64,000 nucleotides of DNA from a virus (IMGVR_UViG_3300021963_000025:64001-128000), one strand, 5' to 3'. Positions 2,225 through 23,430 are shown, numbered from the stretch's first letter. Numbers and translations: made by a program. The notes: a model not told the origin generated them from the sequence alone.

Positions 2225-2247
2225 AACAAACATAATATATTAATACT

Positions 2248-2745
2248 ATGAAAAAAGTAAAACTATTTGAGGAATTTATCAATGAAGGAAAATCATTCCA
2301 ATTCTCTTTTGACTACAATACTGATGAAGATGATGTAGAATATATCCAAGACATTTTAATGAATGCTGGAGTAGATGCAATTGCAGAGCCTGGTACATTT
2401 GACGATGAAATGATAGTTAAAGCCCCAAATGCAGTTGAATTGCGTAAGGCTAAAAAAGCAATCCAGGCAGATGGATTTGAAATTAACGAATCGACACAAA
2501 TGCCTAAACCTATGAAAGGTTTAAAGTACGAAGTAGTTAAAGCAAAAGATTTAAAAATTGGTGACGAAATATCAGATGGACCAAAAGAAACTTGGGAAAT
2601 TTCTAAAGTTGTTTCTATTAATCCTGTTAAATTAGAAGTTGTTGAAACTATCGTTCCCGAAGATAATCCAAGATATAAAGCACCAGGAACTCTTATTAAC
2701 ATTGATTTTGGTCCATATGCAATGATGTTTAAAATAATCAGATAA
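2248..2745 (+). CDS. Leader-bearing putative virion internal protein, two modules
   Basis: MKKVKLFEEFINE leader; internal FEINE-S site. Confidence 0.75.
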   Translation: MKKVKLFEEFINEGKSFQFSFDYNTDEDDVEYIQDILMNAGVDAIAEPGTFDDEMIVKAPNAVELRKAKKAIQADGFEINESTQMPKPMKGLKYEVVKAKDLKIGDEISDGPKETWEISKVVSINPVKLEVVETIVPEDNPRYKAPGTLINIDFGPYAMMFKIIR

Positions 2746-2747
2746 TT

Positions 2748-3173
2748 ATGAAACATACTCAATTATTTAATGAGTTCTTAAATGAATCTCAGAACTTTAT
2801 CGGCGAATCCAGTATTGGAGACATTCATATTATGGCTCAAGAGGCAGATTCTTTCACTGCATTCCGAAAAGAATTCATGGACGAATATGGCAAACCAAAA
2901 TCAGTTAAAGAACTTAAAAGTTTAGAGGCTTGGTTGCAAGAAATTTGGAATGAAAACCAAACTAATGAAAGTGAATTACTTGAAGCTGAAAAGTTTCAAG
3001 CAATAGACATTCCTAAAAGTGCAGCTGCTGGTATAGAACGTATGATTAACACAATTGGAATTAATCAAGCTATTCGTGATGTATTAGGATTTGATAAAGT
3101 TTATCAGAGTTCTGTTGGTATTAACAAGAATAACATAGTTATAACTATTACACAAAAACCAAGAAAAGGATAA
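2748..3173 (+). CDS. Leader-bearing putative virion internal protein
   Basis: MKHTQLFNEFLNE leader; internal QTNE-SELLE-A. Confidence 0.75.
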   Translation: MKHTQLFNEFLNESQNFIGESSIGDIHIMAQEADSFTAFRKEFMDEYGKPKSVKELKSLEAWLQEIWNENQTNESELLEAEKFQAIDIPKSAAAGIERMINTIGINQAIRDVLGFDKVYQSSVGINKNNIVITITQKPRKG

Positions 3174-3451
3174 TGAAACACATTAAACTACACGGAGAAT
3201 TTATTAACGAGGCCAAATCTGAAGTATATCCAGAAGAGGTTCAAAATATAATTGATGGACTTATTGGTATTGGTATGAAAAAATATCAATTAGCAGCTCA
3301 TACTAACTATGGAGTTTGGTTTATTGAATTACCATTTACAGCAATACATATTGGTAATTTAAAGAAAATTGAAAAAATTATACCAGACTTCAACATTGGA
3401 ATCTGGAATGGTTATTCAGGACTATCAATTAGAACAAATATATCTGTATAA
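3173..3451 (+). CDS. Leader-bearing putative virion internal protein
   Basis: MKHIKLHGEFINE leader. Confidence 0.75.
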   Translation: MKHIKLHGEFINEAKSEVYPEEVQNIIDGLIGIGMKKYQLAAHTNYGVWFIELPFTAIHIGNLKKIEKIIPDFNIGIWNGYSGLSIRTNISV

Positions 3452-3885
3452 TGAAAAAGGTAAAACTATTTGAAGAATTTATCAGTGAAACATTATCGAT
3501 GGACGCTGTTTATATTCACCAAATCACTGGTTCAGGCCAGGACGCTGCACAGAACTTTATTGATGATAATAATATAGATTCGGCAAAATTAGTAGCATTT
3601 CTTAAACAACATAAAGACTCAAAAGAGAAATATGATGTTAGAGACATGATTAATGGCACTAATAAGAATAAAAGATTTATGAAGCAATTCATGAATGAGT
3701 CAATGAAGGCAAAAGACTACTTCAAAGACCCAATGCACCTCGCAGACGCTAAAGGATGGGTCATAAATCTTAAGCTATCTGATGATGAGATAAAAGCCAA
3801 GATAAAATCAGTAATGAAAGATCCGTCTAAATTTAATAACTTAATGGACGCAATGACTGACGAATTAAACCTAAAGTGGAAATAA
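3451..3885 (+). CDS. Leader-bearing putative virion internal protein, two modules
   Basis: MKKVKLFEEFISE leader; internal KQFMNE-S. Confidence 0.75.
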   Translation: MKKVKLFEEFISETLSMDAVYIHQITGSGQDAAQNFIDDNNIDSAKLVAFLKQHKDSKEKYDVRDMINGTNKNKRFMKQFMNESMKAKDYFKDPMHLADAKGWVINLKLSDDEIKAKIKSVMKDPSKFNNLMDAMTDELNLKWK

Positions 3886-3887
3886 TT

Positions 3888-4442
3888 ATGAAGCACATAA
3901 AACTATACGAAGAGTTTGTTAATGAACTTGAAATCCCGTCGAACCGTTGGATTGAGCTAGATTTAAAACAAATCGATGCAGCTGGTATGGAGAGTATATG
4001 GACTATGTACACTGATACGTATTTAGGTGCGGGTATGGACCTATCGGCAAATGATTGGCCCGAAATGCAGGCAAAGTACAAAGCAACTGCCCTAAAAGAC
4101 GTTGATGGTGACCATTTTGCGGATGCATTTATTATTTATAAGCCTACCAGATGGGGTAACAAAATCGCCCTATTAGGAACCAATGGTAAAAAAGAGGCAA
4201 AATCTGATGTGGTTAAAAAATTACTGCAATTGGTTAACACTAAAGGTTGGTTTATCGAAGCAAGTCTGAAAATGGAGGAAATCCTCTCTAAGTCAGGAGC
4301 TCCAGTTATAATGGATGAAGAAATGATTAAGGATGTAGTAGGAGCAGATAAAAAACCTGAATTTACAGGCGATGGATATTACACCCGATTCCTATCAAAG
4401 GCAGGTAAAAGAATAACAAAAAGAATATACGGTAAAATATGA
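3888..4442 (+). CDS. Leader-bearing putative virion internal protein (start corrected to 3888)
   Basis: MKHIKLYEEFVNE leader begins at ATG 3888. Confidence 0.75.
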   Translation: MKHIKLYEEFVNELEIPSNRWIELDLKQIDAAGMESIWTMYTDTYLGAGMDLSANDWPEMQAKYKATALKDVDGDHFADAFIIYKPTRWGNKIALLGTNGKKEAKSDVVKKLLQLVNTKGWFIEASLKMEEILSKSGAPVIMDEEMIKDVVGADKKPEFTGDGYYTRFLSKAGKRITKRIYGKI

Positions 4443-4693
4443 AAAAAGTAAAATTATTCGAGGAGTACATCCAAGAGGCGACTACTTCATGGAGCAAAAT
4501 GATGAAAGGTGTTAAAGACGGAGAAAGCGGACCTTGGACAATAGTTGCTATTGAAAACAATAAGGTTGTTGGACAAAAGAATATAGACATTAGAGACCTT
4601 TTACCTGCTGCATTCGAAGAAATGCGTAAAGAATTTCCAAGAGCCAAGTTTCATATTGAAGATAGTACAGGCGGAGTTGTTTGGAATATATAA
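4439..4693 (+). CDS. Leader-bearing putative virion internal protein
   Basis: MKKVKLFEEYIQE leader. Confidence 0.75.
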   Translation: MKKVKLFEEYIQEATTSWSKMMKGVKDGESGPWTIVAIENNKVVGQKNIDIRDLLPAAFEEMRKEFPRAKFHIEDSTGGVVWNI

Positions 4694-4699
4694 ATTGTT

Positions 4700-5125
4700 A
4701 TGGGAGTTATAATTAAAAATGCTATTAATAAAGAGGAACATGAAGCGCTACTTCGAGGAGATACTTCATTTGTTCATATAGCAGGAGAAACTAATCCAAC
4801 AATTTTAAAGATTATTGGAATTCTTAGAGAGCATTTTGATTTTGTAATTAAACCAGAATCATATTGGAGAATAGAACATACTCCTAATGGACATGATTGG
4901 CATATTGATACTGGAACAAATAACCACATGATGTGGTGCCAAGTTGGATGTTCAATATTGTTAACATCAACCAAAGAATTTGAAGGTGGTGAAACCTTTT
5001 ACAATAAAGAGGAACCTTACACAGTGGAACGAGACCTTTATGACATTGCAGCACATACATCGTCTGAATGGCACATGGTTAAACCACATACAGGAAATAG
5101 AGTAGTTCTGCTACTTTTTATTTAA
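4700..5125 (+). CDS. 2OG-Fe(II) oxygenase (P4H-like)
   Basis: WHID (H-x-D), FEGGETF, WHMVKP..GNRVVL motifs. Confidence 0.75.
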   Translation: MGVIIKNAINKEEHEALLRGDTSFVHIAGETNPTILKIIGILREHFDFVIKPESYWRIEHTPNGHDWHIDTGTNNHMMWCQVGCSILLTSTKEFEGGETFYNKEEPYTVERDLYDIAAHTSSEWHMVKPHTGNRVVLLLFI

Positions 5126-5139
5126 TAAAAAACAAAGAC

Positions 5140-5460
5140 ATGAAAAAAGTAAAATTATTTGAGCAGTTTGTCAATGAGGCAAAAGATGCTACTAGAGATG
5201 AATTAATGGACCTAATGGAAACCAAATACAAAATTAAATCTGTTAGACCTTCTGAAGATTTTGACGGTCAAACTGAAGGAATTTGGATTGCAGCTGATAA
5301 TGAGGAAGAGTTAAGTGGTAATAAAATATTTGACTACTACAATAAAAGTGCTAAATACAAAAATGGCGTACTTAAAAGTGTAGTAGATGCTGTAGAGAAA
5401 AAAGGTTGGTGGTTTTCATGGAACGACCCAGGAACAATGATGTGTTGGCCAAAAAATTAA
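5140..5460 (+). CDS. Leader-bearing putative virion internal protein
   Basis: MKKVKLFEQFVNE leader. Confidence 0.75.
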   Translation: MKKVKLFEQFVNEAKDATRDELMDLMETKYKIKSVRPSEDFDGQTEGIWIAADNEEELSGNKIFDYYNKSAKYKNGVLKSVVDAVEKKGWWFSWNDPGTMMCWPKN

Positions 5461-5466
5461 TAAGAT

Positions 5467-5808
5467 ATGAAAAAAGTAAAATTATTTGAAGAGTTCATTG
5501 ATGAATCTGCGACAGTTCTTCACCAACACGATTTCTTAGGAATGCAGGCTCAAGCCGCAAATATGTCTAGGGAGGAATGGATTGCTCACTACGGATCACC
5601 TGAAATTGGCTCTGGAATTGATGAATCAAAGAAAGGTATTTACACAGTCTATTTTGAAGACAGGGATGGAGAAATATGGGATTGGGACGTTCCAGCTAGT
5701 TCACCTGAAGAGGCAATTAAACTAGTACAGGACGGAAAGGCCCTAGGACCTTACGACCAAACACTTCCAAGAGGAGCCCGTAACTTTCACGCAAAGTTTT
5801 ATAAATAA
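5467..5808 (+). CDS. Leader-bearing putative virion internal protein, two modules
   Basis: MKKVKLFEEFIDE leader; internal GIDE-S. Confidence 0.75.
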   Translation: MKKVKLFEEFIDESATVLHQHDFLGMQAQAANMSREEWIAHYGSPEIGSGIDESKKGIYTVYFEDRDGEIWDWDVPASSPEEAIKLVQDGKALGPYDQTLPRGARNFHAKFYK

Positions 5809-5835
5809 CCCTACATACAACATAGTAAAACCCAC

Positions 5836-5883
5836 ATTGGGTCTTTTTAGTTTGATATATAATATAGACTAAAAAGACCCAAT
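5836..5883. promoter_or_regulatory. 16-bp inverted repeat with the late motif GATATATA in its loop
   Basis: attgggtctttttagt (5836-5851) pairs with actaaaaagacccaat (5868-5883); GATATATA at 5854-5861. Confidence 0.8.
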
Positions 5884-5891
5884 TGTTGTAA

Positions 5892-6275
5892 ATGAGCACA
5901 GAGAGAACCCCACAAGAGATGATTCTTGAACTATATGACCTGTTTTCTTCGTTTAAGAGACGAATCGAAGACCCTAATTATATTCAAATAGAGAACACCT
6001 TAGAAAAATTGGTGGAGAATCAAAATGAAATGAAAGAAGAGATTCGAGGATTGAAAAAACAACTCCTGAATCCTTTTGATGGTGTAATTGTGGAGAATAA
6101 AAAGAACACTGAATTTAGAGAGGAACAAGAGGCTTGGAGGGTTGAAAGGGATAAACTAATTGAAGAGCACAAACACTTAATGCGATGGAAAAACGGCGCT
6201 GTTAAGGTTCTAATTGCCCTATTAACCGCAAGTGGTGCAATAGTTACATTCTTTTTAACAAAATACTACCAATAA
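5892..6275 (+). CDS. Coiled-coil protein with a C-terminal TM helix
   Basis: Charged helical body; VLIALLTASGAIVTFFL C-terminus. Confidence 0.6.
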   Translation: MSTERTPQEMILELYDLFSSFKRRIEDPNYIQIENTLEKLVENQNEMKEEIRGLKKQLLNPFDGVIVENKKNTEFREEQEAWRVERDKLIEEHKHLMRWKNGAVKVLIALLTASGAIVTFFLTKYYQ

Positions 6276-6785
6276 ATGATACTTGATAGAATCACTCTTA
6301 ACGTTGCCTTAAAATACTTGGACCAAATTCAACAGAATGAGGGTCCTGTTTTCAATATACTTTTTTCATTAAAAGAACACCATAGCGATGTTACAAAGAC
6401 TGTTAAATTTGAAGACATTGATGTTCTACGAGCATTCATTGAAAGATGGGCAAAACCATCTGGATTTGAAAATTTAGATTGTAAGTCACTTAATCTTTTT
6501 GAGTTAAAATCATTTAGTTTTGATAAAAACAATACAGACAAGAATTTAGTCTATAATTCTGGACAGGAGTTTTTTACAAAGACCGCAAATGTTAATGGTA
6601 TTTCAATATTAAACTTGAATAAGGGATATTTGATTGACATGATAGAAATCAAAGAACTTTTTGATACATTTAAAATTGACGATTATATTCTACTACAGGA
6701 AAATTACATCGACTGCGGTTATATTGCACTACATTTTCAAAGTTCTGTAGAAAAACTAAAACAACTATACTATAAATATAAATAA
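6276..6785 (+). CDS. Hypothetical protein
   Basis: 169-aa ORF abutting the previous gene. Confidence 0.55.
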   Translation: MILDRITLNVALKYLDQIQQNEGPVFNILFSLKEHHSDVTKTVKFEDIDVLRAFIERWAKPSGFENLDCKSLNLFELKSFSFDKNNTDKNLVYNSGQEFFTKTANVNGISILNLNKGYLIDMIEIKELFDTFKIDDYILLQENYIDCGYIALHFQSSVEKLKQLYYKYK

Positions 6786-6790
6786 AAAAC

Positions 6791-9211
6791 ATGCCACAAG
6801 ATAATTTACAAAATTCTGGTGAAAGAGGACCTCAGGGTAAATACAATCCATTGTATCCTGGAGAGCTTGGAAGAGCACTATTTCACCCAGAAATGGATTA
6901 CAACTTGGACCTTATTGGACAAGTAATTCATGGATATAGAGTGATGGGAACCAACAATGATGGAACCATTAATATCAATGATGATGTTGATAAGGTACTT
7001 AAATTACACTTGGTAACTGTTGATGATACTGCCCTAATATTAGCTGGAGCTGAAATTGGTGACTATGTTTGGATTCCAATTGAAGTTACGCAGAATTTAG
7101 GACCTCAAGGATATCAAGGTCGTCAAGGTGCACAAGGTCGTCAAGGTGCGCAAGGAGCACAAGGAGCGCAAGGTAGACAAGGTACACAAGGAAATCAAGG
7201 AAATCAAGGACCTTCGGCAGTAGGTACACCCGGATCACCTGGAAGTGCTGGACCTCAAGGAGCTACAGGACCTCAAGGGGTACAAGGTGCTACCGGACCA
7301 CAAGGAACCCAAGGTTTAGTTGGAAATTACGGTGGAGACAGTTTACGATTCTTAGTTGGAAATTATAATGGAAGTTCTGCGGCTTCTGGAGCAATTACGT
7401 TCAGTAACATACTTACTCCACCTGCACCGAACCTCGATATTATTGTAAGTAATTTTGATGCAGATGGCGCTAACACATATGCTTGGTTTACTAGTATGGT
7501 TTCACAAGGAGGTCGTATAAGAATTACCAGACCAGGTAGAACAACAGAATACATAGACTACACAATAGATAGTGGAAGTACGGGAGGAAATACAACGCTT
7601 AACCTATCATACGTTGGAGGGACTATAACTGCAATCGGATCGGTATGGCCAGTAGGTACTGAACTTATAGTGTCCTATGCAAAGTCAGGAGAACAGGGAA
7701 ATAAAGGTGGCCTCTTATATGAATATAACGGAGGAATGTCTTTTAATGATCCGGATGCTTCTTTAACCACAAGTATTACGTTTAATGAAATTACTGAGGA
7801 TGGCGCTAATGTTGGAGACTACATAAATAATTGGTATGTTGGAGGAACTCTTTTTATACAGAGTAATACCAATGGAGATTCAACGTATACGATGTTCAAC
7901 GTTACAGGAGTAACAATTGATTCAATATTTCCATCAGGGTTTCAATACATCGTTGATGTTAATTATCTTGGAGGTAGTGCACCTACAACTGGTGAAATAT
8001 GCGTTGCTAATTTTAGTCCGGCAGGACCTCAAGGAGCCCAAGGTGTTCAAGGAGCACAAGGAGTCCAAGGTGCTCAAGGTCGTCAAGGAACACAAGGACC
8101 TCAAGGAGTTCAAGGATCAGTAGGAACTGGAACAACAGGACCTCAAGGAGACCAAGGACCTACAGGTTCAGGTTCATCTTTTACGTATGCAAAAACTCTT
8201 TTTGTTGACCCTAATGGAGATGACAGTATCGCTATTCCCGGAAGATTAGACAGACCGTGGCAACATATATCCGAAGCAATCCAATTTCTAGAAGCAGATT
8301 CTAGAGTTGGATGGACTATTTGGGTATTTCCAGGTGAATACACTGAAGACACCCCGTGGACATTTTTTGCTTCTAGCCAAACAACAGTTAAATTAAATGG
8401 AGGTGTTTCTATAGTATTTGACCTAAAGAATTATTCTGAACATGTAATAGAAGGAAATAATGATTTTTCAATAATTGGAGACGATAGAAGTATTGGCGGA
8501 GGTTTACCTAATGTAAGTATTACAACAAAAACAAGTAGCGAAGTGTTTGCTCCACCTATAATGTTAGTTAAATTATCTAGAAAAGATAAAAAATGTAGAA
8601 TTTCTAATGTTTCCCTTATAGGAGGTGAAAGTAAATATGCATTTATGTTAATAAATGCAGATAATCAAATCATACACGTTACAGATTGTTACATATACTC
8701 ACTGGAAAATAACATTAGAGTCTTGGACGAAACTCTTATTCCAAAGGTAGCAATCACTAATAGTATTCTTGTAAATGGTGATATAAATAATGCAAATCAA
8801 TTTGCAAATATAGTTACTAGACAAAATTACACAGTAGATCCAGGTGATACAAATTTTAATGGTATTTGGAACTTTGAAAATGTAAGATTTGTTATCCTTT
8901 GTATTAAGGCAGGTTCAATAGCTTATACTGAAAAGGGTCACATATTTTCAAATAATCAACAATCAACCAAAGGAGGTATGTATGTTACGTTCAGTAGTTG
9001 TAAATTTTATTGTTCATGGTGGAAATCAATTCAAGGAAATTGGGCTGATGAAGGAACTGGTGGAATAAACTTTATTGAAATAGTGGGAACAACTCTATCT
9101 AATGCAGATGCAAGTTACTGGACAAGTGGAGTTACATGGACTGAACTTGGAAATATAGGTTTTATAGTTAATCGAGCTGATATAATCGATCCAACCATAT
9201 TACTATTATAA
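6791..9211 (+). CDS. Collagen-like tail fibre/whisker protein
   Basis: G-x-Q triplet blocks; N-terminal LFHPEMDYNL anchor-like motif; beta-rich C-terminus; TATAAATA at 6771. Confidence 0.8.
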   Translation: MPQDNLQNSGERGPQGKYNPLYPGELGRALFHPEMDYNLDLIGQVIHGYRVMGTNNDGTININDDVDKVLKLHLVTVDDTALILAGAEIGDYVWIPIEVTQNLGPQGYQGRQGAQGRQGAQGAQGAQGRQGTQGNQGNQGPSAVGTPGSPGSAGPQGATGPQGVQGATGPQGTQGLVGNYGGDSLRFLVGNYNGSSAASGAITFSNILTPPAPNLDIIVSNFDADGANTYAWFTSMVSQGGRIRITRPGRTTEYIDYTIDSGSTGGNTTLNLSYVGGTITAIGSVWPVGTELIVSYAKSGEQGNKGGLLYEYNGGMSFNDPDASLTTSITFNEITEDGANVGDYINNWYVGGTLFIQSNTNGDSTYTMFNVTGVTIDSIFPSGFQYIVDVNYLGGSAPTTGEICVANFSPAGPQGAQGVQGAQGVQGAQGRQGTQGPQGVQGSVGTGTTGPQGDQGPTGSGSSFTYAKTLFVDPNGDDSIAIPGRLDRPWQHISEAIQFLEADSRVGWTIWVFPGEYTEDTPWTFFASSQTTVKLNGGVSIVFDLKNYSEHVIEGNNDFSIIGDDRSIGGGLPNVSITTKTSSEVFAPPIMLVKLSRKDKKCRISNVSLIGGESKYAFMLINADNQIIHVTDCYIYSLENNIRVLDETLIPKVAITNSILVNGDINNANQFANIVTRQNYTVDPGDTNFNGIWNFENVRFVILCIKAGSIAYTEKGHIFSNNQQSTKGGMYVTFSSCKFYCSWWKSIQGNWADEGTGGINFIEIVGTTLSNADASYWTSGVTWTELGNIGFIVNRADIIDPTILLL

Positions 9212-9215
9212 TACT

Positions 9216-9238
9216 AAAGGCCCTTAAGGGCCTTTTTT
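9216..9238 (+). terminator. Rho-independent terminator
   Basis: aaaggccc-ttaa-gggccttt followed by a T-tract. Confidence 0.85.
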
Positions 9239-9278
9239 AAACTTTTTAGGACGGCTTCATATAATATTAAACAATTGT

Positions 9279-9941
9279 ATGAATCAAAAAGCACTAGACC
9301 GTATCTCTTTAAAAATAACCGATGAGGTTTTTGCACACTGGAATCTTGACTGGAATTTGGGCAAAACCCATTCAAACTTTTACAAACAAATCAAGAGAAA
9401 GGGACTTGAGTTTGATATTGATGCAACCATTTATTTTGATAAGGTAGAAGACCAACCAATTGAAGGATTTATTTCATTTGACACTACAGGAGCCGACTCT
9501 AGAGACTTTGATGATGACGGCAACCCTCAAACACCTTTTATAATTATCGACTTTGGTATTGAAAATGGTTGGCTACCTCAATATTTTACTGAACTCTATG
9601 CACATCTTGTAGACGTTGTCCGACACGAGGTGGAACATATAACCCAAGGTGGTGAGAGTATTGGTAACTACCAACCTGGCAAGCCCTCTGATGATGATTC
9701 TATAGAACGTGAATTGATACACCAAGGGTTTCTTCCTCAATCAACCTACTTAATGCTACCCAAAGAGGTAGATGCAAATCTTGAAGGACTGCGATTAGAA
9801 TCACAAGTTCGCGGAGAAAAGATGATAAATACTTTAAATAGATATTTAGACTCACAAGGCTTAAACCAAGACGAAAGAATACAAGTGGTCCAACTTTGGA
9901 GAAATCGAGCTAAAAAAATTAGAGCAATTCCGGAATTTTAA
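9279..9941 (+). CDS. Hypothetical protein with an HExxH (zincin-like) motif
   Basis: VRHEVEHITQ and downstream KEVDA. Confidence 0.5.
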   Translation: MNQKALDRISLKITDEVFAHWNLDWNLGKTHSNFYKQIKRKGLEFDIDATIYFDKVEDQPIEGFISFDTTGADSRDFDDDGNPQTPFIIIDFGIENGWLPQYFTELYAHLVDVVRHEVEHITQGGESIGNYQPGKPSDDDSIERELIHQGFLPQSTYLMLPKEVDANLEGLRLESQVRGEKMINTLNRYLDSQGLNQDERIQVVQLWRNRAKKIRAIPEF

Positions 9942-9966
9942 ATATCGATAAATATACAAAAAACCA

Positions 9967-10266
9967 ATGAATTTAGTATTTCAAGGTACAATTGACGTAT
10001 CAAGTGGAACTCAAATAGATTGTGCGTATGACAATATGCTGATTTCCTTAATGGTTATCAATAACCAAACCGGAAATTATACTCTTACGGTTAAAAGACT
10101 AGAAACTGAGGCCGGAGGTTTAGAAACACTTCTTTATAAATTTCTATTAGACAATGGAGATTCTGTTAGGGACACAACCCAATATAAAATGTCTAAAGGT
10201 GATTATATTCATCTGGAATCTACTCAAGCCGACACAACTTATTATATCTCAGCAGAAGTAGAATGA
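9967..10266 (+). CDS. Small beta-rich protein, probably structural
   Basis: Follows GATAAATA (9947); overlaps the fibre gene start. Confidence 0.55.
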   Translation: MNLVFQGTIDVSSGTQIDCAYDNMLISLMVINNQTGNYTLTVKRLETEAGGLETLLYKFLLDNGDSVRDTTQYKMSKGDYIHLESTQADTTYYISAEVE

Positions 10267-12830: not shown

Positions 12831-13039
12831 TAGCAATATATTTGAATAGATATGATGATTTACCATTAACCTATTTTGATTTGGCATTTAATGAGAATGA
12901 CGTTCAAACGCTAAGACTTGGAGGAGTTCCTTTCAACGAAGGATTTTCTGAACAAGATATGATTGATAGAGCAACAGAGATATTTGAAGGTAATTTTTCA
13001 ACTGTAGCATATCAATTAACTGAAATAATAACCCAATAA
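12827..13039 (+). CDS. Hypothetical protein
   Basis: 70-aa ORF translationally coupled on both sides. Confidence 0.6.
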   Translation: MIAIYLNRYDDLPLTYFDLAFNENDVQTLRLGGVPFNEGFSEQDMIDRATEIFEGNFSTVAYQLTEIITQ

Positions 13040-16000: not shown

Positions 16001-16074
16001 ATTGGTCAACTGTTGGAGTTTATGCAGAACCTGATTGGAGAAAACCAGGTGGAACTGTAACCTTTGTAAATTAA
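13039..16074 (+). CDS. Large tail/adhesin protein (G8-like domain, beta-helix, carbohydrate-binding-like domains)
   Basis: GGTFTIGTAANPIP and NLTRNIKIRS (G8/beta-helix pattern); N/T/S-rich repeats; VGNGWYRCSIT domain. Confidence 0.65.
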   Translation: MATLLSIQSGNLLDASTWALVDSTSFLETRTTEQALTTVQTNASAAFIPGTITVAGVAVQVGTRLAAPTGTMTIRLYNNTAAAVVKDVVINVTDLPSTNGTLNGCIVGWTYFKFDTSVTLIAGNQYSIRAFSSVNSQVTLYRNAVTGNWNRALVTTTTQAPVAADVLITAGAYTSVGVNSSVTVTMNSTSLATQYGNCYVGSNGTLNYGVAPSTNYGLRLAGDLWIGRGGTFTIGTAANPIPATSTAILEINCTTPLQYQIIQFGTLETKYETTVLHRALLNADIAVGATSMTTDVSTGWKQNDVIVIPSTTRTTTQFERVTLSANASGTSLSHNATTYAHDGNAAIYIQADLANLTRNIKIRSVSSTNRTRFRPGLLGVTNLFDVEFFEMGSNTHASGTAQYTGTLNVQQCTFWQIASPGTTILFANINITTYDVSNNVFYNYSEFTSTINNNNLIIGFTGFAAISQAAIGNNNVISSCSQAGYSGTMYGSTTGNRFYATAGNGAWYATSNSLGHTISNTVFFNNSQAIRYIPSTATTASDRTVFDKFENCYFYGNVTNIDIIASGNVTNMRRLWFNNCFFWGGKTGLLTAIGYAPFAGDYTHFSNCTFGRMPIGTDSFFTTSCLRGGHYGSTLTNCLFYGTQYSFVSQNFFSTVHGFNGLISLKHNGTINEYRLAQSNGLIQNDNVITYNGNPSIRITPAVLTNKTFSSPVRVAIKSGETCNVSVAIRRSVPADGSIYNGVAPRLMYAFNPLAGNLTETVGASYTNNNLISYTQTLVTGWTQSQCFATQNATIAPNGELDGDKIIPFGTTSEHPLYPNIGSPALGNTETYSVYAKAGGYNYLGLRVQISGVWSVSFFNLATGVISTSSPSFISTDITSVGNGWYRCSITYANRSVAGFQIIPAPSELVTFTGNSVDGIFVWGAKLEVGTLTDYVPDGTWETLSYTTPPVNNDSVLEFYVDCDGVTGWINIDNFKTTTSNDTKSMNYWSTVGVYAEPDWRKPGGTVTFVN

Positions 16075-16113
16075 ACAGATATATACCTTATAAAAAATAA
16101 TTAAACAATAAAG

Positions 16114-16362
16114 ATGGCAACAAAAGTTTGGAAGGTTGATAATCAACTAAGAATAGAAACAGATGGTGTAACAACCTATGGAAATGCAGCACTTTACTCA
16201 ATTTTAGAATTTACCGCAACATCAGTTACGTTAATCTATTCAGGAGTTTCTAACATCTCTACAAAAACTACAATTAATTTTACAGATTTTCAAGATGATG
16301 CTGAAGTACCTTATACAACAGAAGCTGCCATTGCAGATTATTTAGCACCACTAATTGGATGA
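16114..16362 (+). CDS. Hypothetical small protein, probably structural
   Basis: GATATATA at 16078; stop overlaps the next start. Confidence 0.55.
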   Translation: MATKVWKVDNQLRIETDGVTTYGNAALYSILEFTATSVTLIYSGVSNISTKTTINFTDFQDDAEVPYTTEAAIADYLAPLIG

Positions 16363-18332
16363 GACGTATAATATCATCAAGAAGAAAACAGGGACAATTT
16401 ACTTCCGCTCCGGTAGTAAGTGGGAATACAACAATCGGTTCAGTACTATCTGTAACTAATGGTGTATTCGACGGACCGTCATCAACATATACATACCAAT
16501 GGTTCCTAGACAGTAGTCCAATATCAGGAGCTACCAGTAGCACTTATACACTTCCAGCGCTTAGCAATGGAATATTAAGATGCATTGTTAAGGCAACAAA
16601 TGCGCTTGGTACCGTTAAATCTACAAGTAACTTTTTTACGATTAGAAATTCCTTTAATTTTGTAGTTAAAACTGATAATACTTCAACAGGGAGTAGTACT
16701 GTAACTCAGTTCAAATTACCATTAATTAGTACAGGTACTTACAACTTTACGGTTTACTGGGGAGATGGTACTTCAAATACAATAACAACTTGGAATCAAG
16801 CACAAACAACGCACACATACGCAACTGCTGGAACCTACAATATTTCGATAACAGGGACTATAACAGGATTTTGTTTTAATAATGCAGGTGATAAACTTAA
16901 AATTTTATCAGTTGGATGGTGGGGTCCTTTAAGACCTTCTAATAATTCCGGAACTTTCTTTGGATGTACTAATTTAACACTAGATAATGTTAAAGATGTT
17001 CTTAACCTTACAGGTATGACAGCTCTTAATAATTTCTTTTATGCATGCTCAAGTTTAGTTAAAGTTAACCGCATTGGTGAGTGGAACACGTCAAATATCA
17101 CTTCTTTGAATAGAATGTTTGAAAACTGCTATAATTTTAATGATAATGTAGGAGGATGGAATACTTCTAATGTTATAGATATGCAAAATGTTTTTGCTAA
17201 CGCTAGAAACTTTAATAATGGAGGTAGTCCAGATATTGGAAATTGGGACACTAGCAAAGTTACTACATTCAGATTTTTATTTGGTTCTGATGCGAATGGT
17301 GTATATCATAGTTTTAATCAATATATTGGAGACTGGAATACTTCAGCCGTTACAAATACATCATCAATGTTTGGAAGAAACATTAAGTTCAATCAAGACA
17401 TTAATACAAAATCCGTTACAAAAAATGGAGTTACCTATACCGCATGGGACACTAAAGAAATTACTAATATGGGTTTCATGTTTAATGGATATGCAGGAGA
17501 TGGAAACTACGGAGTATTTAATCAATATATTGGAGACTGGAATACCTCTAAAGTTACTACAATGGGATCTTTGTTCCAATCTCAACCTAAATTTAACCAA
17601 GATATATCAACAAAGGTTGTAACGGTTAATGGAGTTACATATACTGCATGGGACACTTTAAATGTTACTAATATGGGTTATACATTCTATGGTGACTCTT
17701 TTATTACTCCATCAGAATTTAATCAAAACATTGGAAATTGGAATACTTCTAAAGTAACAACGATGACTACTATGTTACAATTTAATACAAGTTTTAACCA
17801 AAATATTGGAACAAAAACAGTAACGGTAAATGGAACTACATATACTGCATGGAATACTTCTCTAGTTACAAATATGAATTATATGCTTGGTGGATGTTCA
17901 GTATTTAATAATGGTGGAAGTTCTTCAATTAATGATTGGAATGTTGCAAATGTAACAGGTATTACACAAACTTTTTGGAACGCGTCTGCTTTTAATCAAC
18001 CTCTTAATTCTTGGAACACTGTAAAAGTTACTAACATGGGTGGAACATTTTATAATGCAGCTAATTTTAACCAAAGCTTAAGCAATTGGAAAGCTAATTT
18101 AGTTACTACATTTATTGAAGGTAGTACTAATTTTATGCAGGGTAAAACATTCTATGATTATTCAACTGCTAATTATGATGCACTACTTATTGGATGGGCA
18201 TCAAGACCGGTATTGGCAAATAAGACAATCAATTTTGGTACCATTAAGTACACTTCAGCAGCCGTAGCCGCAAGAGCAATATTAACATCAGCACCAAATA
18301 ACTGGACAATAATAGACGGAGGACAAATATGA
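16359..18332 (+). CDS. Ig-like, PKD and BspA/DUF285 repeat surface protein
   Basis: TYTYQW..ISGATSSTYT; VYWGDGT..THTYATAGTY; many WNTSKVTTM..MF..FNQ repeats. Confidence 0.85.
   Translation: MRRIISSRRKQGQFTSAPVVSGNTTIGSVLSVTNGVFDGPSSTYTYQWFLDSSPISGATSSTYTLPALSNGILRCIVKATNALGTVKSTSNFFTIRNSFNFVVKTDNTSTGSSTVTQFKLPLISTGTYNFTVYWGDGTSNTITTWNQAQTTHTYATAGTYNISITGTITGFCFNNAGDKLKILSVGWWGPLRPSNNSGTFFGCTNLTLDNVKDVLNLTGMTALNNFFYACSSLVKVNRIGEWNTSNITSLNRMFENCYNFNDNVGGWNTSNVIDMQNVFANARNFNNGGSPDIGNWDTSKVTTFRFLFGSDANGVYHSFNQYIGDWNTSAVTNTSSMFGRNIKFNQDINTKSVTKNGVTYTAWDTKEITNMGFMFNGYAGDGNYGVFNQYIGDWNTSKVTTMGSLFQSQPKFNQDISTKVVTVNGVTYTAWDTLNVTNMGYTFYGDSFITPSEFNQNIGNWNTSKVTTMTTMLQFNTSFNQNIGTKTVTVNGTTYTAWNTSLVTNMNYMLGGCSVFNNGGSSSINDWNVANVTGITQTFWNASAFNQPLNSWNTVKVTNMGGTFYNAANFNQSLSNWKANLVTTFIEGSTNFMQGKTFYDYSTANYDALLIGWASRPVLANKTINFGTIKYTSAAVAARAILTSAPNNWTIIDGGQI
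17313..17880 (+). repeat. About 200-nt tandem internal duplication within the BspA gene
   Basis: 29-nt identical tttaatcaatatattggagactggaatac at 17313 and 17517; variant at 17718. Confidence 0.75.
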
Positions 18333-18538
18333 GTTACTTTTTAGCACACAACGAAACGGATGTTTTTCATTATGGAGAACTATTAGAAGGCCAGGTAATA
18401 GAAACTGGGCAACCGCATTTAGAATATTTTAATGCATTGCAAGAATTAAAAGATAGATTGGCTTTTTTTAATGTAGAGTATATTGAAAATATTGACGTAG
18501 ACCTTCCAGGTGGACCAAACGATGATTTAATAGAGTAA
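18329..18538 (+). CDS. Hypothetical protein
   Basis: 69-aa ORF overlapping the previous stop. Confidence 0.6.
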   Translation: MSYFLAHNETDVFHYGELLEGQVIETGQPHLEYFNALQELKDRLAFFNVEYIENIDVDLPGGPNDDLIE

Positions 18539-18549
18539 ACAATCTTAAA

Positions 18550-18580
18550 ATTTGATATATAATACTTGAATATATCAAAT
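18550..18580. promoter_or_regulatory. 11-bp inverted repeat with a late motif in the left arm
   Basis: atttgatatat / atatatcaaat; GATATATA at 18554-18561; ATG at 18584. Confidence 0.7.
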
Positions 18581-18583
18581 AAC

Positions 18584-19135
18584 ATGTTAAACGAAGCTTA
18601 CACCACTGACAAAATCCTTATTTTCGATATTGATGATACTATCGCAATTACCCCTGCGAAAATAGTAGTCACTGACACAAAAACTGGAAAGACATTCGAA
18701 CTGACTCCAGAAGAGTTTAACTCATACGAGAAAAACAAAAATCATCTTGTTAATTTCGACCAATTCAGATCACTAGAGATTATGAAAGCGGGTCGATTGA
18801 TTGATAAATACTTCAACGTACTCACTAAAAACTACAAGAGTGGCGTTGCAATCGGTGTTATTACAGCACGAGACAATAGAGAAATGATATACGAATGGTT
18901 CCGCTTTCACTTAGGATTCCATATCGATAAAAAACTGATCTGGGCAGTTAATGACCCAGTCCATGGACTTACCGGAAATATACAACAACGAAAACAGGAC
19001 GCAATGCGCTGGTTTATTGACCAGGGTTACACGGATATCACGTTCTTCGACGACGATAGAAACAATATAAAACTAATAAAACAATTAGAGAGTGAACTCG
19101 GTCAATCGATCAAGACACATCTTGCTAAACACTAG
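18584..19135 (+). CDS. HAD-superfamily hydrolase (start corrected to ATG 18584)
   Basis: IFDIDDT, VITAR, FFDDD motifs. Confidence 0.7.
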   Translation: MLNEAYTTDKILIFDIDDTIAITPAKIVVTDTKTGKTFELTPEEFNSYEKNKNHLVNFDQFRSLEIMKAGRLIDKYFNVLTKNYKSGVAIGVITARDNREMIYEWFRFHLGFHIDKKLIWAVNDPVHGLTGNIQQRKQDAMRWFIDQGYTDITFFDDDRNNIKLIKQLESELGQSIKTHLAKH

Positions 19136-19141
19136 GAAATT

Positions 19142-20323
19142 ATGGCAAATTTAGGAGATTTTAAAACAAGATTTGAAATGGCAGTTAATCAGGCCAATGC
19201 AGATCAACAAATAAATGAATCGATGGATTCACCTCTAAATGAGGCAAAAATTAATACAGAATCAATGCAAGGGGAGGTTGATAACCCAGGATCTATTCAT
19301 GGAAATATGGCCCTAATTGATGCGCTTACAAAAGCTAAAAAAATTGATGATTATAAAACTTTTGCAAAAAACTATCCAAATGGAATTCCAACAACTTTTA
19401 TCTTAAATCTTTTTGCATCACTGAATCCAAAAGAGTCAGAAGAACTTGCTAAAGATTTATACTCAAAATCAACTCCAAAAGACTTGAACGCTGGAATGTA
19501 CTCAAATAGAAATTCAGTACTTGGAAAGTTATTTGACCAAAAGCCAACTGGACTTGGAAAGGGAGAAGCACTTATTGCATGGTTAATTAGAGGTGCAGTA
19601 ATTCAAGGTGGAACAGAGAGTTATGATGTTATCATTAATGGAAAAGATACCTTTGAGGTTAAAGATTACAGTAAAAATAATGCAGCAATCCGAGCAGGAG
19701 TAAAATCAAAGGTTAGTAACTTTGAATTTTGGAGAGAGATTAGCGATACACTATCAAGAATCGATAAATTGACAGGATATTCTGCTGGAAAACCTAAATT
19801 TGATATAAGCAAATACTTCTCTCCGGAGATGACAACAGCAGCAAACTACCTAATGGGAAGAAGAGGTACTATCATGTCGGGTGAATGTAATAAAACCGAT
19901 TTTGCAAATATTAACAAATTCTATGAAGAGGCTCATAAGGTTGAAAATAATCTACATGGGTATACCAATGTGATTTTAAGAGGACCAAATGCAGCTCCTA
20001 TCGAGTTAAGTATTGACCTATTAGACCCTGCTGCGGTTAAAGGAGATACAATTACCTTTCATGTTGCAAAAACCGACCAAACTGCAACGTACATTCTAGC
20101 AGAATTGAAGCGATTAAAATATGTTAGAAATCCAAAAGACTTAGAAGTGGATATGCAAAAAGCGGTTGACCAAATACATTCAGGACTTGTGTATATCGTA
20201 TTCCGTAAAAACACAATAAATATTACAACAGATTTTGTACCAGCTCAGGTATCAACATCATCTCTCTACTTTGTAGAAAGAAACATTAAAGACCCTATAA
20301 TAGACACTACATTAGATGACTAA
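19142..20323 (+). CDS. PD-(D/E)xK nuclease-like protein with N-terminal INE/LNE sites
   Basis: GKGEALIAW...SYDVIING..FEVKD; QQINE-S, PLNE-A near the N-terminus. Confidence 0.5.
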   Translation: MANLGDFKTRFEMAVNQANADQQINESMDSPLNEAKINTESMQGEVDNPGSIHGNMALIDALTKAKKIDDYKTFAKNYPNGIPTTFILNLFASLNPKESEELAKDLYSKSTPKDLNAGMYSNRNSVLGKLFDQKPTGLGKGEALIAWLIRGAVIQGGTESYDVIINGKDTFEVKDYSKNNAAIRAGVKSKVSNFEFWREISDTLSRIDKLTGYSAGKPKFDISKYFSPEMTTAANYLMGRRGTIMSGECNKTDFANINKFYEEAHKVENNLHGYTNVILRGPNAAPIELSIDLLDPAAVKGDTITFHVAKTDQTATYILAELKRLKYVRNPKDLEVDMQKAVDQIHSGLVYIVFRKNTINITTDFVPAQVSTSSLYFVERNIKDPIIDTTLDD

Positions 20324-20495
20324 TGAGGAATGGAATAAATACGTTGACACTGGTTATGTACCACAAAGGTTCATAAAGGAAATAGTGACCAGAATTAAAC
20401 ACAATATGACGCTCAATATGAGACACATTCAAGTGTATATGACTCATAGTGCAATTATAGAATTATATTTAAAAAACGGAATAAAAAATAAATAA
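20316..20495 (+). CDS. 59-aa protein absent from the ORF track (MTNEEWNKYVDTG...)
   Basis: ATG overlaps the previous stop region; TAA ends 3 nt before the next ATG, filling the gap exactly. Confidence 0.6.
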   Translation: MTNEEWNKYVDTGYVPQRFIKEIVTRIKHNMTLNMRHIQVYMTHSAIIELYLKNGIKNK

Positions 20496-20498
20496 AGC

Positions 20499-21089
20499 AT
20501 GAAACATGTTAAACTATACGAACAATTCGTAAATGAGGCTAAAAGTTACAGTATCAAAGGAATGATAAAAAAGGCAACTACTGATAAAACAGACAGATTG
20601 CCATACGTAACACTTACATCAGATGTTGACCGATTTATTTCAAGATGGGCATATAGACAAGGTTTAGATGAAATTGATTTTACTCCAGAAATGAGAGCCG
20701 AATTTGAAGACGGAATCCGAGCAGCAGGCTATGATGTAGTTGATGCTAAAGACATTGAAAAGCAAAAAGTATTCAGTGCATTGATGAAGGACCTAAAAAA
20801 ATCATGGGATTGGGATGTTAAATTGACTCCACATAAAGATGAAAATTATACCACAAACTCTAGACCCCTGATTTATATTGAACTTAGAGGCGGAAAAGCA
20901 GGAAAACTAGAGAATGGAGAACCGATTATCGATCTTAATATTGGTAACAAAATGCCTTACTATTTCAATGGCACTAGTGAACAATTCAGTACTTGGTTAC
21001 ATGACAGAGGATTTGCAATTATTAGTACTAATGGTCAAAAATTCATTACTGAATTAAGTGCTACAAGAGGAGAACCATCATACTACTAA
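20499..21089 (+). CDS. Leader-bearing putative virion internal protein
   Basis: MKHVKLYEQFVNE leader. Confidence 0.75.
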   Translation: MKHVKLYEQFVNEAKSYSIKGMIKKATTDKTDRLPYVTLTSDVDRFISRWAYRQGLDEIDFTPEMRAEFEDGIRAAGYDVVDAKDIEKQKVFSALMKDLKKSWDWDVKLTPHKDENYTTNSRPLIYIELRGGKAGKLENGEPIIDLNIGNKMPYYFNGTSEQFSTWLHDRGFAIISTNGQKFITELSATRGEPSYY

Positions 21090-21105
21090 ATAAAAAATCA
21101 TAACA

Positions 21106-21618
21106 ATGAAACACATTAAAGTATTTGAAGACTTTGCAAATGAGGCAAAGAATAAAGGCCCGTTTATCTTTTACACGGCAGATGATTCAGTGATGAAATC
21201 CGCACAGTTTAAAAATAGCGCTGGATATGTTAAAGACATGGAGAAAGACCTAGGAGTCGATCCAAACCAAATTAACGACATCATAGTAAAAGAACTTGGC
21301 TCTTCAATTGATAAAGCATGTTACGTTACCGCTGACAACTATAATGAAATAACTTCACATGCAAAAGCTGCCATGATAAAAGGTATTAAATTTGTACAGC
21401 AAGGAGATTTTAAACTAAATGAACAATTTGTAAACGAGGCAATGGCACTAACCCAATATTACAGAAACTCTGACAAGGAGGTAAAAGATATTGCAAAACA
21501 AATAGATGCTATTATTAATACAGCAGATTTTGTAGTACCATCAAGTAAAGACAAGTTACTAGACCTGATCACTGACCTAACAGATGCATATCTAGCGGAT
21601 ATGCGTGACGAGGAATAA
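21106..21618 (+). CDS. Leader-bearing putative virion internal protein, two modules
   Basis: MKHIKVFEDFANE leader; internal KLNE-QFVNE-A. Confidence 0.75.
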   Translation: MKHIKVFEDFANEAKNKGPFIFYTADDSVMKSAQFKNSAGYVKDMEKDLGVDPNQINDIIVKELGSSIDKACYVTADNYNEITSHAKAAMIKGIKFVQQGDFKLNEQFVNEAMALTQYYRNSDKEVKDIAKQIDAIINTADFVVPSSKDKLLDLITDLTDAYLADMRDEE

Positions 21619-21759
21619 TATATCACATCAACTATGTCCCGTATAATATTCTCTAACTAGAATGGACCCTCAAATCCCCCTACCGCTTCTATACTCGATT
21701 CCCCTAATAATGGGAATCATTATCTTGATAAAAGACAGAAAACACTAAATAACTATAAC

Positions 21760-21969
21760 ATGGAAAACATTACACTAGGACAGAAAAGGGTACAAAGAAA
21801 CTTTAACCCTTCAGCAAACCCAGATGTCGAAAACATTAAAGAGCAATATGCTAATATTATCGACCATTTAGAAACCTTAAGAAACGACCGTAACGGTAGA
21901 GAGGTTTCAATAGCACAAACAGAGGCTGAAACCTCTTGTATGTATGCAGTAAAATCACTATTTGTATAA
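21760..21969 (+). CDS. Acb2/Tad1-like helical-hairpin protein (putative immune-signal sponge)
   Basis: FNPS..V..IK...A.II..LE..; REVSIAQTEAETSCMYAVKS fits the R..s.A.T..E...M.A.K hairpin pattern. Confidence 0.6.
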   Translation: MENITLGQKRVQRNFNPSANPDVENIKEQYANIIDHLETLRNDRNGREVSIAQTEAETSCMYAVKSLFV

Positions 21970-21971
21970 TC

Positions 21972-22499
21972 ATGAAACATGTAAAACTGTTCGAACAATT
22001 CATAAATGAAGGTTACATGGATAACTTTAAAGAGTATGAAAAGGAATTCAAAAAGAGAGGTTTGAATCGACACAGTGAAGGATGGTCAGAAGGTGGTTAT
22101 GAGGACATTTGGTATACAGATTTCGAATTAGGCCGTTTTGTTGTTAGTTTCTGGGGACTAAATATGGCCCTAACATCTGACATGTCAAAAACCCAACGTA
22201 ATAAACCAGAATACGAGTACAATGTATATTTCGAACCTTTCCCAAAATACAAAATGAAATTATTTGGTTTGATTAAAACTCAAGAGCGTCAATTAGGCAA
22301 ACAAATCGACTTTGCTAGAGGTTACATCGATTTTTCAGAAGGTAAATTTACAACAGATGATAAAACATTTATGAAGTACCTATTTAGTGTAGTTGATGAT
22401 GGATTAGAAAAATCTAAAGAAATTTCTAAAATTGAATACCTTTCTTTTGAAGACAGCGCAAAATGGGCACGTCCAGCAATCGATAATGTAAATAGATAA
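21972..22499 (+). CDS. Leader-bearing putative virion internal protein (start corrected to 21972)
   Basis: MKHVKLFEQFINE leader. Confidence 0.75.
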   Translation: MKHVKLFEQFINEGYMDNFKEYEKEFKKRGLNRHSEGWSEGGYEDIWYTDFELGRFVVSFWGLNMALTSDMSKTQRNKPEYEYNVYFEPFPKYKMKLFGLIKTQERQLGKQIDFARGYIDFSEGKFTTDDKTFMKYLFSVVDDGLEKSKEISKIEYLSFEDSAKWARPAIDNVNR

Positions 22500-22507
22500 A
22501 ACCAATT

Positions 22508-22915
22508 ATGAAACCTATAAAACTATTCGAAGAATTCCTTAATGAGTCCCAAAAACAGGATGCTGCTATGCAAAAGGTGGAAGCACTCCCTAAAGGGTCA
22601 ATATTTGATGATGCAAAACGAATAGACTCTATATTCAAAATTAACAATCGTACTTGGAGTGAAGTGGTTCAAGCCTGGGAAGAGAATGAAAAATCTGCAA
22701 AAAGCAAAACAATAAACCCTAAGGACGTACAAATAACCCAAAGGAATATACAATCAAGCAAGGTAGAGGAAATGATATACAGAAAGGGTCCTCTTAAAAC
22801 CATTAATGTTATTGAATTCCCAGAAGGAATGGTAATCCCCGATGGACACCACAGACTTACAACAGCATGGGCCCTAGGAGAAACCAAACTAAAAGTTAAC
22901 TACGTAAAAGCATGA
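22508..22915 (+). CDS. Leader-bearing ParB/Srx-like domain protein
   Basis: MKPIKLFEEFLNE leader; INPKDVQITQ..VIPDGHHRL..A..LG motif. Confidence 0.7.
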   Translation: MKPIKLFEEFLNESQKQDAAMQKVEALPKGSIFDDAKRIDSIFKINNRTWSEVVQAWEENEKSAKSKTINPKDVQITQRNIQSSKVEEMIYRKGPLKTINVIEFPEGMVIPDGHHRLTTAWALGETKLKVNYVKA

Positions 22916-23430
22916 AACATATAAAACTATTTGAAAACTTCCTAAATGAAGAAACCCAATTCCCAGCACAGTTTGGTATAGATGAACCAGTAGCTTTCAA
23001 AACCTCTCAGCAGGACCCTGAAAGATGGGGAACCGTAGTCAAAGTATCATTCACTAAAGCAAAAGTTTGGTATGATATACTGGATGATTATACAGCAACC
23101 GTAATTAGTGATGTAGATTCAGTATGGGTAAAATCATTAGCAGGAAAACCCCTACCAGAATCCTTCCTAAATGAAGGGGAAGATGCAGTAACCCTAAACG
23201 TAACTATTAGTAATATTGACCAATCTACAGCAGACGATTTCTTAAAGATGTTTGCATTCATGGAATATTGTGGAAACGTAGGAACTGCCCGAACGATGCA
23301 GGCTTTCTTTGATGGTGATGGACACTTCAGACCCCGTATCAAAGTTGAAGGCATCGACCTACAAGATATCGACCTAGGCCTAACTGATGAAGACAAGAAA
23401 ATCGACCTAGACTTGGACTTCGGAGCCTAA
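22912..23430 (+). CDS. Leader-bearing putative virion internal protein, two modules
   Basis: MKHIKLFENFLNE leader; internal ESFLNE-G. Confidence 0.75.
   Translation: MKHIKLFENFLNEETQFPAQFGIDEPVAFKTSQQDPERWGTVVKVSFTKAKVWYDILDDYTATVISDVDSVWVKSLAGKPLPESFLNEGEDAVTLNVTISNIDQSTADDFLKMFAFMEYCGNVGTARTMQAFFDGDGHFRPRIKVEGIDLQDIDLGLTDEDKKIDLDLDFGA

Follow-up and report, generated by a model that had tools for sequence, protein, structure and literature searches.

In an uncultured T4-like phage, genes that share an N-terminal leader are built from modules which fuse and separate among relatives, and the terminal motif of the leader stands at the joints. The DNA analysed here is a 64,000-nucleotide stretch (IMGVR_UViG_3300021963_000025:64001-128000, called the window below), that is, bases 64001-128000 of a 199,669-bp contig whose completeness is estimated at 74%. 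About 26 genes of the genome, 15 of them in the window, begin with a 13-residue leader (consensus MKHIKLFEEFxNE); the next residue is in most cases Ala, Ser or Gly, and the bodies behind the leader are unrelated. Six window genes consist of two modules that separate in relatives at a Glu resembling the end of the leader, and a prohead protease of the gp21 family is encoded by the genome. The leader genes are likely to be precursors of head cargo made of shuffled modules, in which a gp21-type protease would cut the joints so that one leader loads several proteins.

Two-module leader genes and their joints

The original prediction placed internal copies of the leader's terminal motif in seven open reading frames (ORFs) and proposed that they lie between stitched segments. 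All seven were found in the named ORFs, the positions given for them being ORF starts and not sites. The six two-module genes are listed below, an arrow marking the proposed cut after Glu; the seventh ORF (19142) is described further on.

ORF 2248, 2248..2745, plus strand: two modules; leader MKKVKLFEEFINE at 2248-2286; joint FEINE↓S at nucleotides 2476-2493, Glu81 (GFEINE↓S with the residue before it)
ORF 2748, 2748..3173, plus strand: two modules; double joint QTNE↓SELLE↓A at nucleotides 2958-2987, Glu74 and Glu79
ORF 3451, 3451..3885, plus strand: two modules; joint KQFMNE↓S at nucleotides 3682-3702, Glu83
ORF 5467, 5467..5808, plus strand: two modules; joint GIDE↓S at nucleotides 5614-5628, Glu53
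ORF 21106, 21106..21618, plus strand: two modules; internal leader remnant KLNEQFVNE↓A at nucleotides 21412-21441, Glu106 and Glu111
ORF 22912, 22912..23430, plus strand: two modules; internal leader remnant KPLPESFLNE↓G at nucleotides 23146-23178, Glu88

All six genes split at the proposed Glu in relatives, where the halves recur as stand-alone leader genes or with other partners; every segment pair separates, as had been anticipated. The N module of ORF 2248 (residues 14-81) has three different downstream partners (L021/L054, L022/L053, L020/L052) and, in L023, another module upstream. That of ORF 2748 lies inside polyproteins of L020, L021 and L027 and is joined directly to the module of window gene 3173 in L023_2947. 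Its C module begins beyond the second of the two sites (LLE↓A), and eight clusters, P0147-P0154, have it as a leader gene of its own (MKHIKLFEEHVNE↓SINE↓ATEQF...). For ORF 3451, the N module was found alone in L035 and the C module alone with its own leader in L039_742 (MKHIKLYEQFITE↓STNIK...), and both occur in further combinations (L027, L028, L033, L036, L029). The N module of ORF 5467 forms the exact C-terminal end (...GSGIE) of a different protein in L048/L049; in L050 it stands nearly by itself, in L051 it is paired with another partner, and in L041 an inserted module precedes it. The N module of ORF 21106 is alone in P0131-P0133, where it ends in ...QGDFILDxKA; its C module is alone in L006 (77 residues) and follows at least seven other partners, always immediately after x-N-E. 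Finally, the N part of ORF 22912 stands alone in L018 and P0005 and is joined to the 3173 module in L011 and P0004, and the C part (GEDAVTLNV...) is a stand-alone leader gene of 98-99 residues in L010, L012-L017 and L019 (MKHIKLFENFLTE↓AEDGTVTLNV...). Among 127 cluster representatives (from 1.84 billion proteins), 49 have only the N part, 74 only the C part and none both, the four flagged with both halves having over-extended or zero-score alignments. The 22912 fusion was therefore not found in another cluster.

Three single-module genes of the window are, conversely, fused in relatives:

ORF 3173, 3173..3451, plus strand: single-module leader gene (MKHIKLHGEFINE↓AKSEVYPEE...)
ORF 4439, 4439..4693, plus strand: single-module leader gene (MKKVKLFEEYIQE↓ATTSW...)
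ORF 5140, 5140..5460, plus strand: single-module leader gene (MKKVKLFEQFVNE↓AKDAT...)

The 3173 module forms the C-terminal part of fused ORFs in L023_2947 (...ESLTNE↓AKSEVY), P0004 (...EEPTNE↓AKNSQYP) and P0143. That of ORF 4439 is joined to the 5140 module in L040_1945 (...GVVWNE↓AVTNE↓AKNST), L048_1338 and L041_1687, to the C module of ORF 21106 in L007, P0138 and P0141, and to the N module of ORF 3451 in L036. The 5140 module is C-terminal in ORFs of two to four modules (L039, L040, L041, L048, L049, P0009), with xNE↓A always directly upstream.

When the module starts of the window were projected onto the ORFs of relatives, 21 of 22 distinct internal starts came immediately after [ILVMFTA]-x-E, for which the chance is 4.2% per residue, and the exception was two residues off. 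The homology breakpoints fall on the motif, which does lie between segments. An unrelated module is present upstream at no fewer than 15 of these joints, and the Glu is therefore not merely inherited with the neighbouring module. Up to five modules were found in one ORF (L027/L053_2501).

The joints could be arranged in three grades. In the first, a complete internal leader is present with its Met (L020, ...QTNE↓NNMKYATTFEGFVTE↓S; P0011). In the second, partial remnants are left (KLNEQFVNE and KPLPESFLNE in the window, SNEQFVNE in P0135). The third retains a minimal hexapeptide, most often ESVVNE, of which there are seven distinct internal occurrences from five sources, with codons that differ across genomes. 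Leader positions K5, L6 and F7 decay at the joints; P3, the P1 Glu and usually the P2 Asn persist. Both states of one pair were recovered: in L066, genes 1501-1854 (...QGDFILDPKETV stop) and 1864-2196 (MKKIKLYEQFVGE↓AIETAVNTF...) are adjacent and separate, and in P0134 they form one ORF (...QGDFILDPTVLESVAE↓AAETAVNQF...) in which the leader is replaced by LESVAE↓A. The pattern fits fusion through loss of the stop codon and of the first four codons of the next gene, after which the leader would have eroded to the positions that specify cleavage.

QFVNE and FLNE had been singled out as remnants of fused leaders, and MAFFT alignment bears this out, the leaders of stand-alone homologues falling on the internal stretches of ORFs 21106 and 22912. 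KLNEQFVNE and KPLPESFLNE thus align as leader remnants that lack only the first four leader residues. The remnant of ORF 21106 has an Asn codon (AAT) where the KLYEEFVNEA leader at window 104287 has a Tyr codon (TAT), a single-base difference, and the remnant DNA is 83% identical to the two nearest leader DNAs. Folds of these two ORFs were predicted with AlphaFold2 from homologue alignments. In the model of 22912 (mean predicted local distance difference test score, pLDDT, 88), residues 20-75 form a beta-rich domain and residues 97-150 an alpha/beta domain, both with pLDDT above 90; at residues 81-90, which is the joint, pLDDT drops to 57. The low predicted template modelling score (0.51) agrees with two domains whose mutual arrangement is not fixed. 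In the weaker model of 21106 (mean pLDDT 64), the sole internal stretch below 50 is residues 101-112, again the joint. Both joints are modelled as low-confidence linkers between separate domains, and the predicted folds span neither site, as the proposed domain boundaries require. By homology and by AlphaFold2 the units are independent, and the sites match the leader terminus. A protease-processed viral polyprotein would have such units set apart by sites for the virus's own protease, which the joints may be. A Foldseek search of the 22912 model against the PDB gave only weak matches to Tudor/SH3-like barrels (E at least 0.01).

The C module of ORF 22912 (window 23176-23430) carries an FDGDGxFR motif, ends in LDLGFGA and is widespread, with 74 cluster representatives. 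P0082 and P0113 carry it fused behind a 2H-phosphoesterase-like domain, of a kind also present on another leader protein of the genome. In the fused ORF L011:3001-3510 (22912 N part and 3173 module), reading is interrupted in frame by a stop at the Trp of KAKVWYDIL; P0004 has the intact version. The stop marks a pseudogene, results from a sequencing error or is suppressed.

The leader DNA had also been proposed as a recombination anchor. Identity between leaders is about 70%, and the longest exact run common to any pair is 23 nucleotides. Identical leader residues use the same codon in 58% of pairs, compared with 56% expected from codon usage, indicating that the leader is conserved as a peptide. 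An anchor at the DNA level was therefore not supported, which leaves room for short microhomology.

The leader, the head protease and proposed cutting at the joints

The protease is recognised by PF03420 (Peptidase_S77; 45.6 bits, cut-off 27), and the genome thus contains the gp21-family enzyme that a T4-type cargo system would need:

gp21-type (S77) protease, G000:C1:198969 to the very end of the contig (Pfam match 199029-199373): immediately behind the portal gene and a small, acidic, core-like gene

Portal similarity puts the nearest relatives among uncultured huge phages (58% identity to LR756500), Sphingomonas phage PAU and the Prevotella Lak phages being more distant; megablast of window positions 2000-6000 against cultured and deposited phages gave zero matches. 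The C-terminal part of the protease (L005:8969-9667) carries ...VNE↓AYGFLNE↓G, and the major capsid proteins of relatives (L061-L064) all start with M-x-LINE↓(A/Q)EI, which suggests that the protease processes itself and that the first cut in the capsid protein takes off a very short piece. The small protein adjoining the portal gene carries the motif as well.

The T4 capsid targeting sequence of IPI, IPII, IPIII and Alt was reportedly described by Mullaney and Black in 1996 as being removed by the prohead protease gp21. The leader studied here is likewise a common N-terminal peptide ending in hydrophobic-x-Glu before a small residue, and by analogy it most likely acts in the same way. We propose that the 13-residue leader would dock a protein into the prohead core, and that the gp21-type protease would remove it by cutting after its final Glu. 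The cargo would consist of small modules of about 40-100 residues, each folding on its own. The joints would keep the cleavage part of the leader (hydrophobic residue or Thr at P3, usually Asn at P2, Glu at P1, a small residue at P1'), often reduced to E-S-V-V-N-E. The six window genes would then be two-module precursors, cut at the joints within the prohead. A single targeting peptide would thereby bring in at least two proteins in equal numbers, and the modules, released as separate proteins, would be ejected with the DNA.

The frequency of the motif was compared between 23 leader proteins and the 250 other called genes of the 199.7-kb genome, and with shuffled sequences. The excess expected by the original prediction was confined to forms resembling the leader terminus. 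The generic [ILVM]xE was not enriched in leader-protein bodies, with 50 observed against 61.8 expected from the other 250 genes and a similar figure from shuffles. By comparison, xNE[SAG] occurred 8 times (2.9-3.1 expected), [ILVMF][NDQS]E[SAG] 10 times (3.0 in shuffles, of which 0/2000 reached 10, or 4.3 at the background rate, P=0.012), and F[ILVMA][NDQST]E 5 times (about one expected). As these definitions were set post hoc, with the data already seen, a matrix of positions P6-P1' was derived from the leaders and scored as well. This gave 1.57 sites per 1000 residues in leader-protein bodies and 0.33 elsewhere (4.8-fold; Fisher P=0.004); among the 19 background sites, 8 belong to two large proteins adjoining other leader genes, outside the window. 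In a scan with a 14-column matrix, the internal QGDFKLNEQFVNEA of ORF 21106 scored as a real leader.

Several points weigh against cargo precursors cut at their joints. The phage is uncultured and its leader proteins, joints and protease are known from sequence alone; cutting by the head protease, at the leader or at the joints, is deduced from these sequences, for the phage and its relatives alike. The major capsid and scaffold genes are not on the contig (74% complete), the former lying beyond its end. When the specificity of the protease was approached through canonical substrates, the capsid proteins of relatives aligned poorly with T4 gp23 near the known Glu65 site, and the cut could not be placed. 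The joints of ORFs 2248, 2748 and 5467, three of the six in the window, score below the threshold of the leader-derived matrix. Generic Φ-x-E sites (Φ, hydrophobic) within modules are about as frequent as in other proteins, and cleavage specificity must therefore rest on context or accessibility. Finally, the name 'effector' given to the modules is an assumption, with no Pfam match and a weak fold search.

The leader-like remnants could be accounted for by fusion history alone. The joints would then be relics that now serve as flexible linkers, the fused proteins being packaged, if at all, intact, and only the N-terminal leader being removed. The three weakly matching joints of the window, and the indirect nature of the case for cutting, speak for such relics. 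Neutral relics should decay evenly, yet the P1 Glu and P3 are kept at 21 of the 22 joints while the remaining leader is lost. Joints such as ESVVNE, LESVAE, KVLE↓SE and SIDE↓A are leader-like only at these two positions, and one hexapeptide recurs at unrelated joints in different codons across genomes. We favour cutting over mere linkage because of this selective retention of P1 Glu, P3 and usually P2 Asn at the expense of K5, L6 and F7, and consider it unlikely that the joints are relics.

Much less probable is that the N-terminal peptide is a signal of another kind (for export, membrane association or translation) and that the internal motifs are unrelated to the head protease. The end of the leader, Φ-N-E with a small residue behind it, agrees with the Glu specificity of gp21-type proteases (PMC9026906), and the motif is also present on the protease, on the small portal-adjoining protein and on the capsid proteins of relatives (M-x-LINE↓AEI). 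The leader is moreover amphipathic and acidic, not a hydrophobic signal peptide. For another signal it can be said that the capsid targeting role is a prediction, that the leader sequence is unlike that of T4 and that the leader has no Pfam family. That the internal motifs are chance matches and the fusions errors of assembly or gene calling, as the unenriched generic motif and the in-frame stop of the L011 fusion might suggest, is hardly credible, since the same module combinations are repeated across numerous independent assemblies and databases, 21 of 22 breakpoints coincide with the motif and an intact L011-type fusion exists (P0004).

Other leader genes and neighbouring genes

The remaining leader genes of the two arrays, ORF 19142 and two genes with variant leaders are as follows:

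ORF 3888, 3888..4442, plus strand: single-module leader gene of array 1; no strong internal site
Leader genes 20499-21089, 21972-22499 and 22508-22915, plus strand: remainder of array 2; single module each
ORF 19142, 19142..20323, plus strand: 393 residues, without leader; QQINE↓S (Glu26, nucleotides 19217-19219) and PLNE↓A (Glu34, nucleotides 19241-19243)
Variant-leader gene, window 46120-46602: MASIKKFEEFVSE↓M; very acidic, several Φ-x-E↓A/S sites
Variant-leader gene, window 60513-61316: MNKFKTFGQFINE↓S

Full-length homologues were found for ORF 3888 in L012_4559 and L016_5832 (84% identity), for 21972 in L019_3318 and for 22508 in L011, L055 and L060. ORF 19142 had been counted among the stitched leader proteins, an assignment that did not hold. 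Its full-length homologues (60-83% identity) keep xINE↓S...LNE↓[AG], or only VLNE↓A, near the N terminus, and the protein is whole in all relatives; its motifs thus appear to lie in a conserved N-terminal propeptide, and by these comparisons it is neither a leader protein nor a fusion. No Pfam match was found for it. The variant-leader protein encoded at 46120-46602 may be scaffold- or core-like.

In a Pfam search of 16 leader proteins and four large neighbouring proteins, the only family above cut-off was a cytidylyltransferase-like domain in L001:12284-14152. No leader protein of the window had a family above cut-off, ORF 22508 giving only a sub-threshold DUF1015 match. The T4 late-promoter motif TATAAATA was not enriched in the window (9 observed, 11 expected).

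A 122-residue protein at L001:1972-2340 (G000:C1:153972-154340) starts with MKTFLDYIAE↓QNITETELQVLNE↓S. This N terminus is closer than the main leader to the T4 capsid targeting sequence, which we take to be MKTYQEFIAE, and the protein may represent a second leader type in the same phage. Two larger proteins with internal sites are also encoded outside the window. The first, of 825 residues (G000:C1:159553-162030; L001:7553-10030), has many ES[IV][ND]E↓A-type sites and no Pfam match; its residues 467-560 match L053_1803 and residues 738-825 the C-terminal module of P0140, P0142 and P0145. Judged by these matches, it is probably a large cargo polyprotein drawn from the same module pool. The second, of 701 residues (G000:C1:166180-168285; L001:14180-16285), starts with MNFNQFLNE↓N and contains ESVTNE↓A, LNESVVNE↓R and KLNE↓GTLNE↓A; its homologues in L056-L058 have an extra N-terminal segment ending in ...ELDE↓A.

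Within array 1, between ORFs 4439 and 5140 (fused in relatives), lies a gene without leader (window 4700-5125) for a 141-residue protein whose HxD...H pattern is reminiscent of 2OG-Fe(II) oxygenases. An 806-residue protein (window 6791-9211) with two long collagen-like G-x-x tracts (GAQGRQGAQG...) is likely a fibre protein, separating the two leader arrays.

Significance and comparison with known systems

Proteins injected together with phage DNA are the first to act in infection; they include anti-defence factors and are hard to spot when the phage is uncultured. Should leader and joint motif indeed mark head cargo, a single genome would yield dozens of candidate injected proteins from its sequence, with domain boundaries given by the joints. 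The window offers unusually clear fusion/fission pairs with intermediate stages, a series that traces a route from targeting signal to putative processing site. On balance, and with some reserve, we lean towards a more general picture for distant T4-like phages, in which cargo cassettes would shift freely between stand-alone and fused states, the leader would erode to E-S-V-V-N-E and the protease would free a string of proteins in fixed proportion for injection. Were this so, sequence alone could suffice to predict which proteins large uncultured phages inject. The polyprotein strategy, usually tied to RNA viruses, would extend to phages with double-stranded DNA, and natural design rules would be suggested by which one tag loads several foreign proteins into T4-type capsids. 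In the literature searched on polyproteins together with the prohead protease or the capsid targeting sequence, we came upon no account of cargo polyproteins that carry a leader and have protease sites at their joints.

In the giant phages phiKZ, 201phi2-1 and SPN3US, many head proteins are likewise cut after Glu by the head protease, frequently more than once per protein (PMC10052503, PMC5694885, PMC9026906); these cuts mainly remove and fragment long propeptides. The literature searched on head processing in these three phages gave no report of products matching modules that exist elsewhere as separate tagged genes. In T-even internal-protein loci, as far as the account in PMC2839356 of Repoila et al. 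1994 goes, cargo is shuffled through intergenic promoter/terminator cassettes. According to the same account, the exchange of cargo genes as cassettes in hypervariable loci is a shared feature, whereas the anchors proposed there are intergenic and the breakpoints described here lie in coding sequence, at the leader or joint; the leader DNA, moreover, is not conserved beyond the peptide level.

A closer likeness is found with polyvalent proteins (Iyer, Burroughs, Anand, de Souza and Aravind 2017, PMC5512222), which belong to a phage virion context, combine several unrelated modules in one polypeptide, undergo combinatorial domain shuffling between genomes and are predicted to be packaged and to reach the host along with the DNA. 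The leader proteins likewise contain two or more unrelated modules per polypeptide, combined differently across genomes. Polyvalent proteins are made of known enzymatic or anti-restriction domains (MuF, ParB-like, ART, zincin-like peptidase), whereas no Pfam match above cut-off to their hallmark domains (MuF, DdrB-like ParB, ART, zincin-like peptidase) was obtained for the leader proteins of the window. They also differ in being predicted to be processed by an embedded peptidase, in place of joint sites for a protease predicted to act in trans and an N-terminal leader.

The other close parallel is T4 itself. There the capsid targeting sequence takes internal proteins to the prohead core and is removed by gp21, which cuts after Glu, processes core proteins at several sites and is itself processed (PMC9026906; PMC3012670); the internal proteins of T-even phages, which have only the leader in common, are injected anti-restriction or anti-defence proteins (PMC12373910). 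Both systems place a short N-terminal peptide ending in hydrophobic-x-Glu on unrelated proteins, have a gp21-family protease gene beside the portal gene and keep their cargo genes in variable arrays. They differ in scale, with at least 26 tagged genes in an incomplete genome here and a handful in T4, and in the leader itself, which here is a 13-residue peptide of other sequence, with predicted packaging and function. Whereas the internal proteins of T4 are single-module, many precursors of the present phage contain two to five modules with internal joint sites, and these modules pass between stand-alone and fused states.

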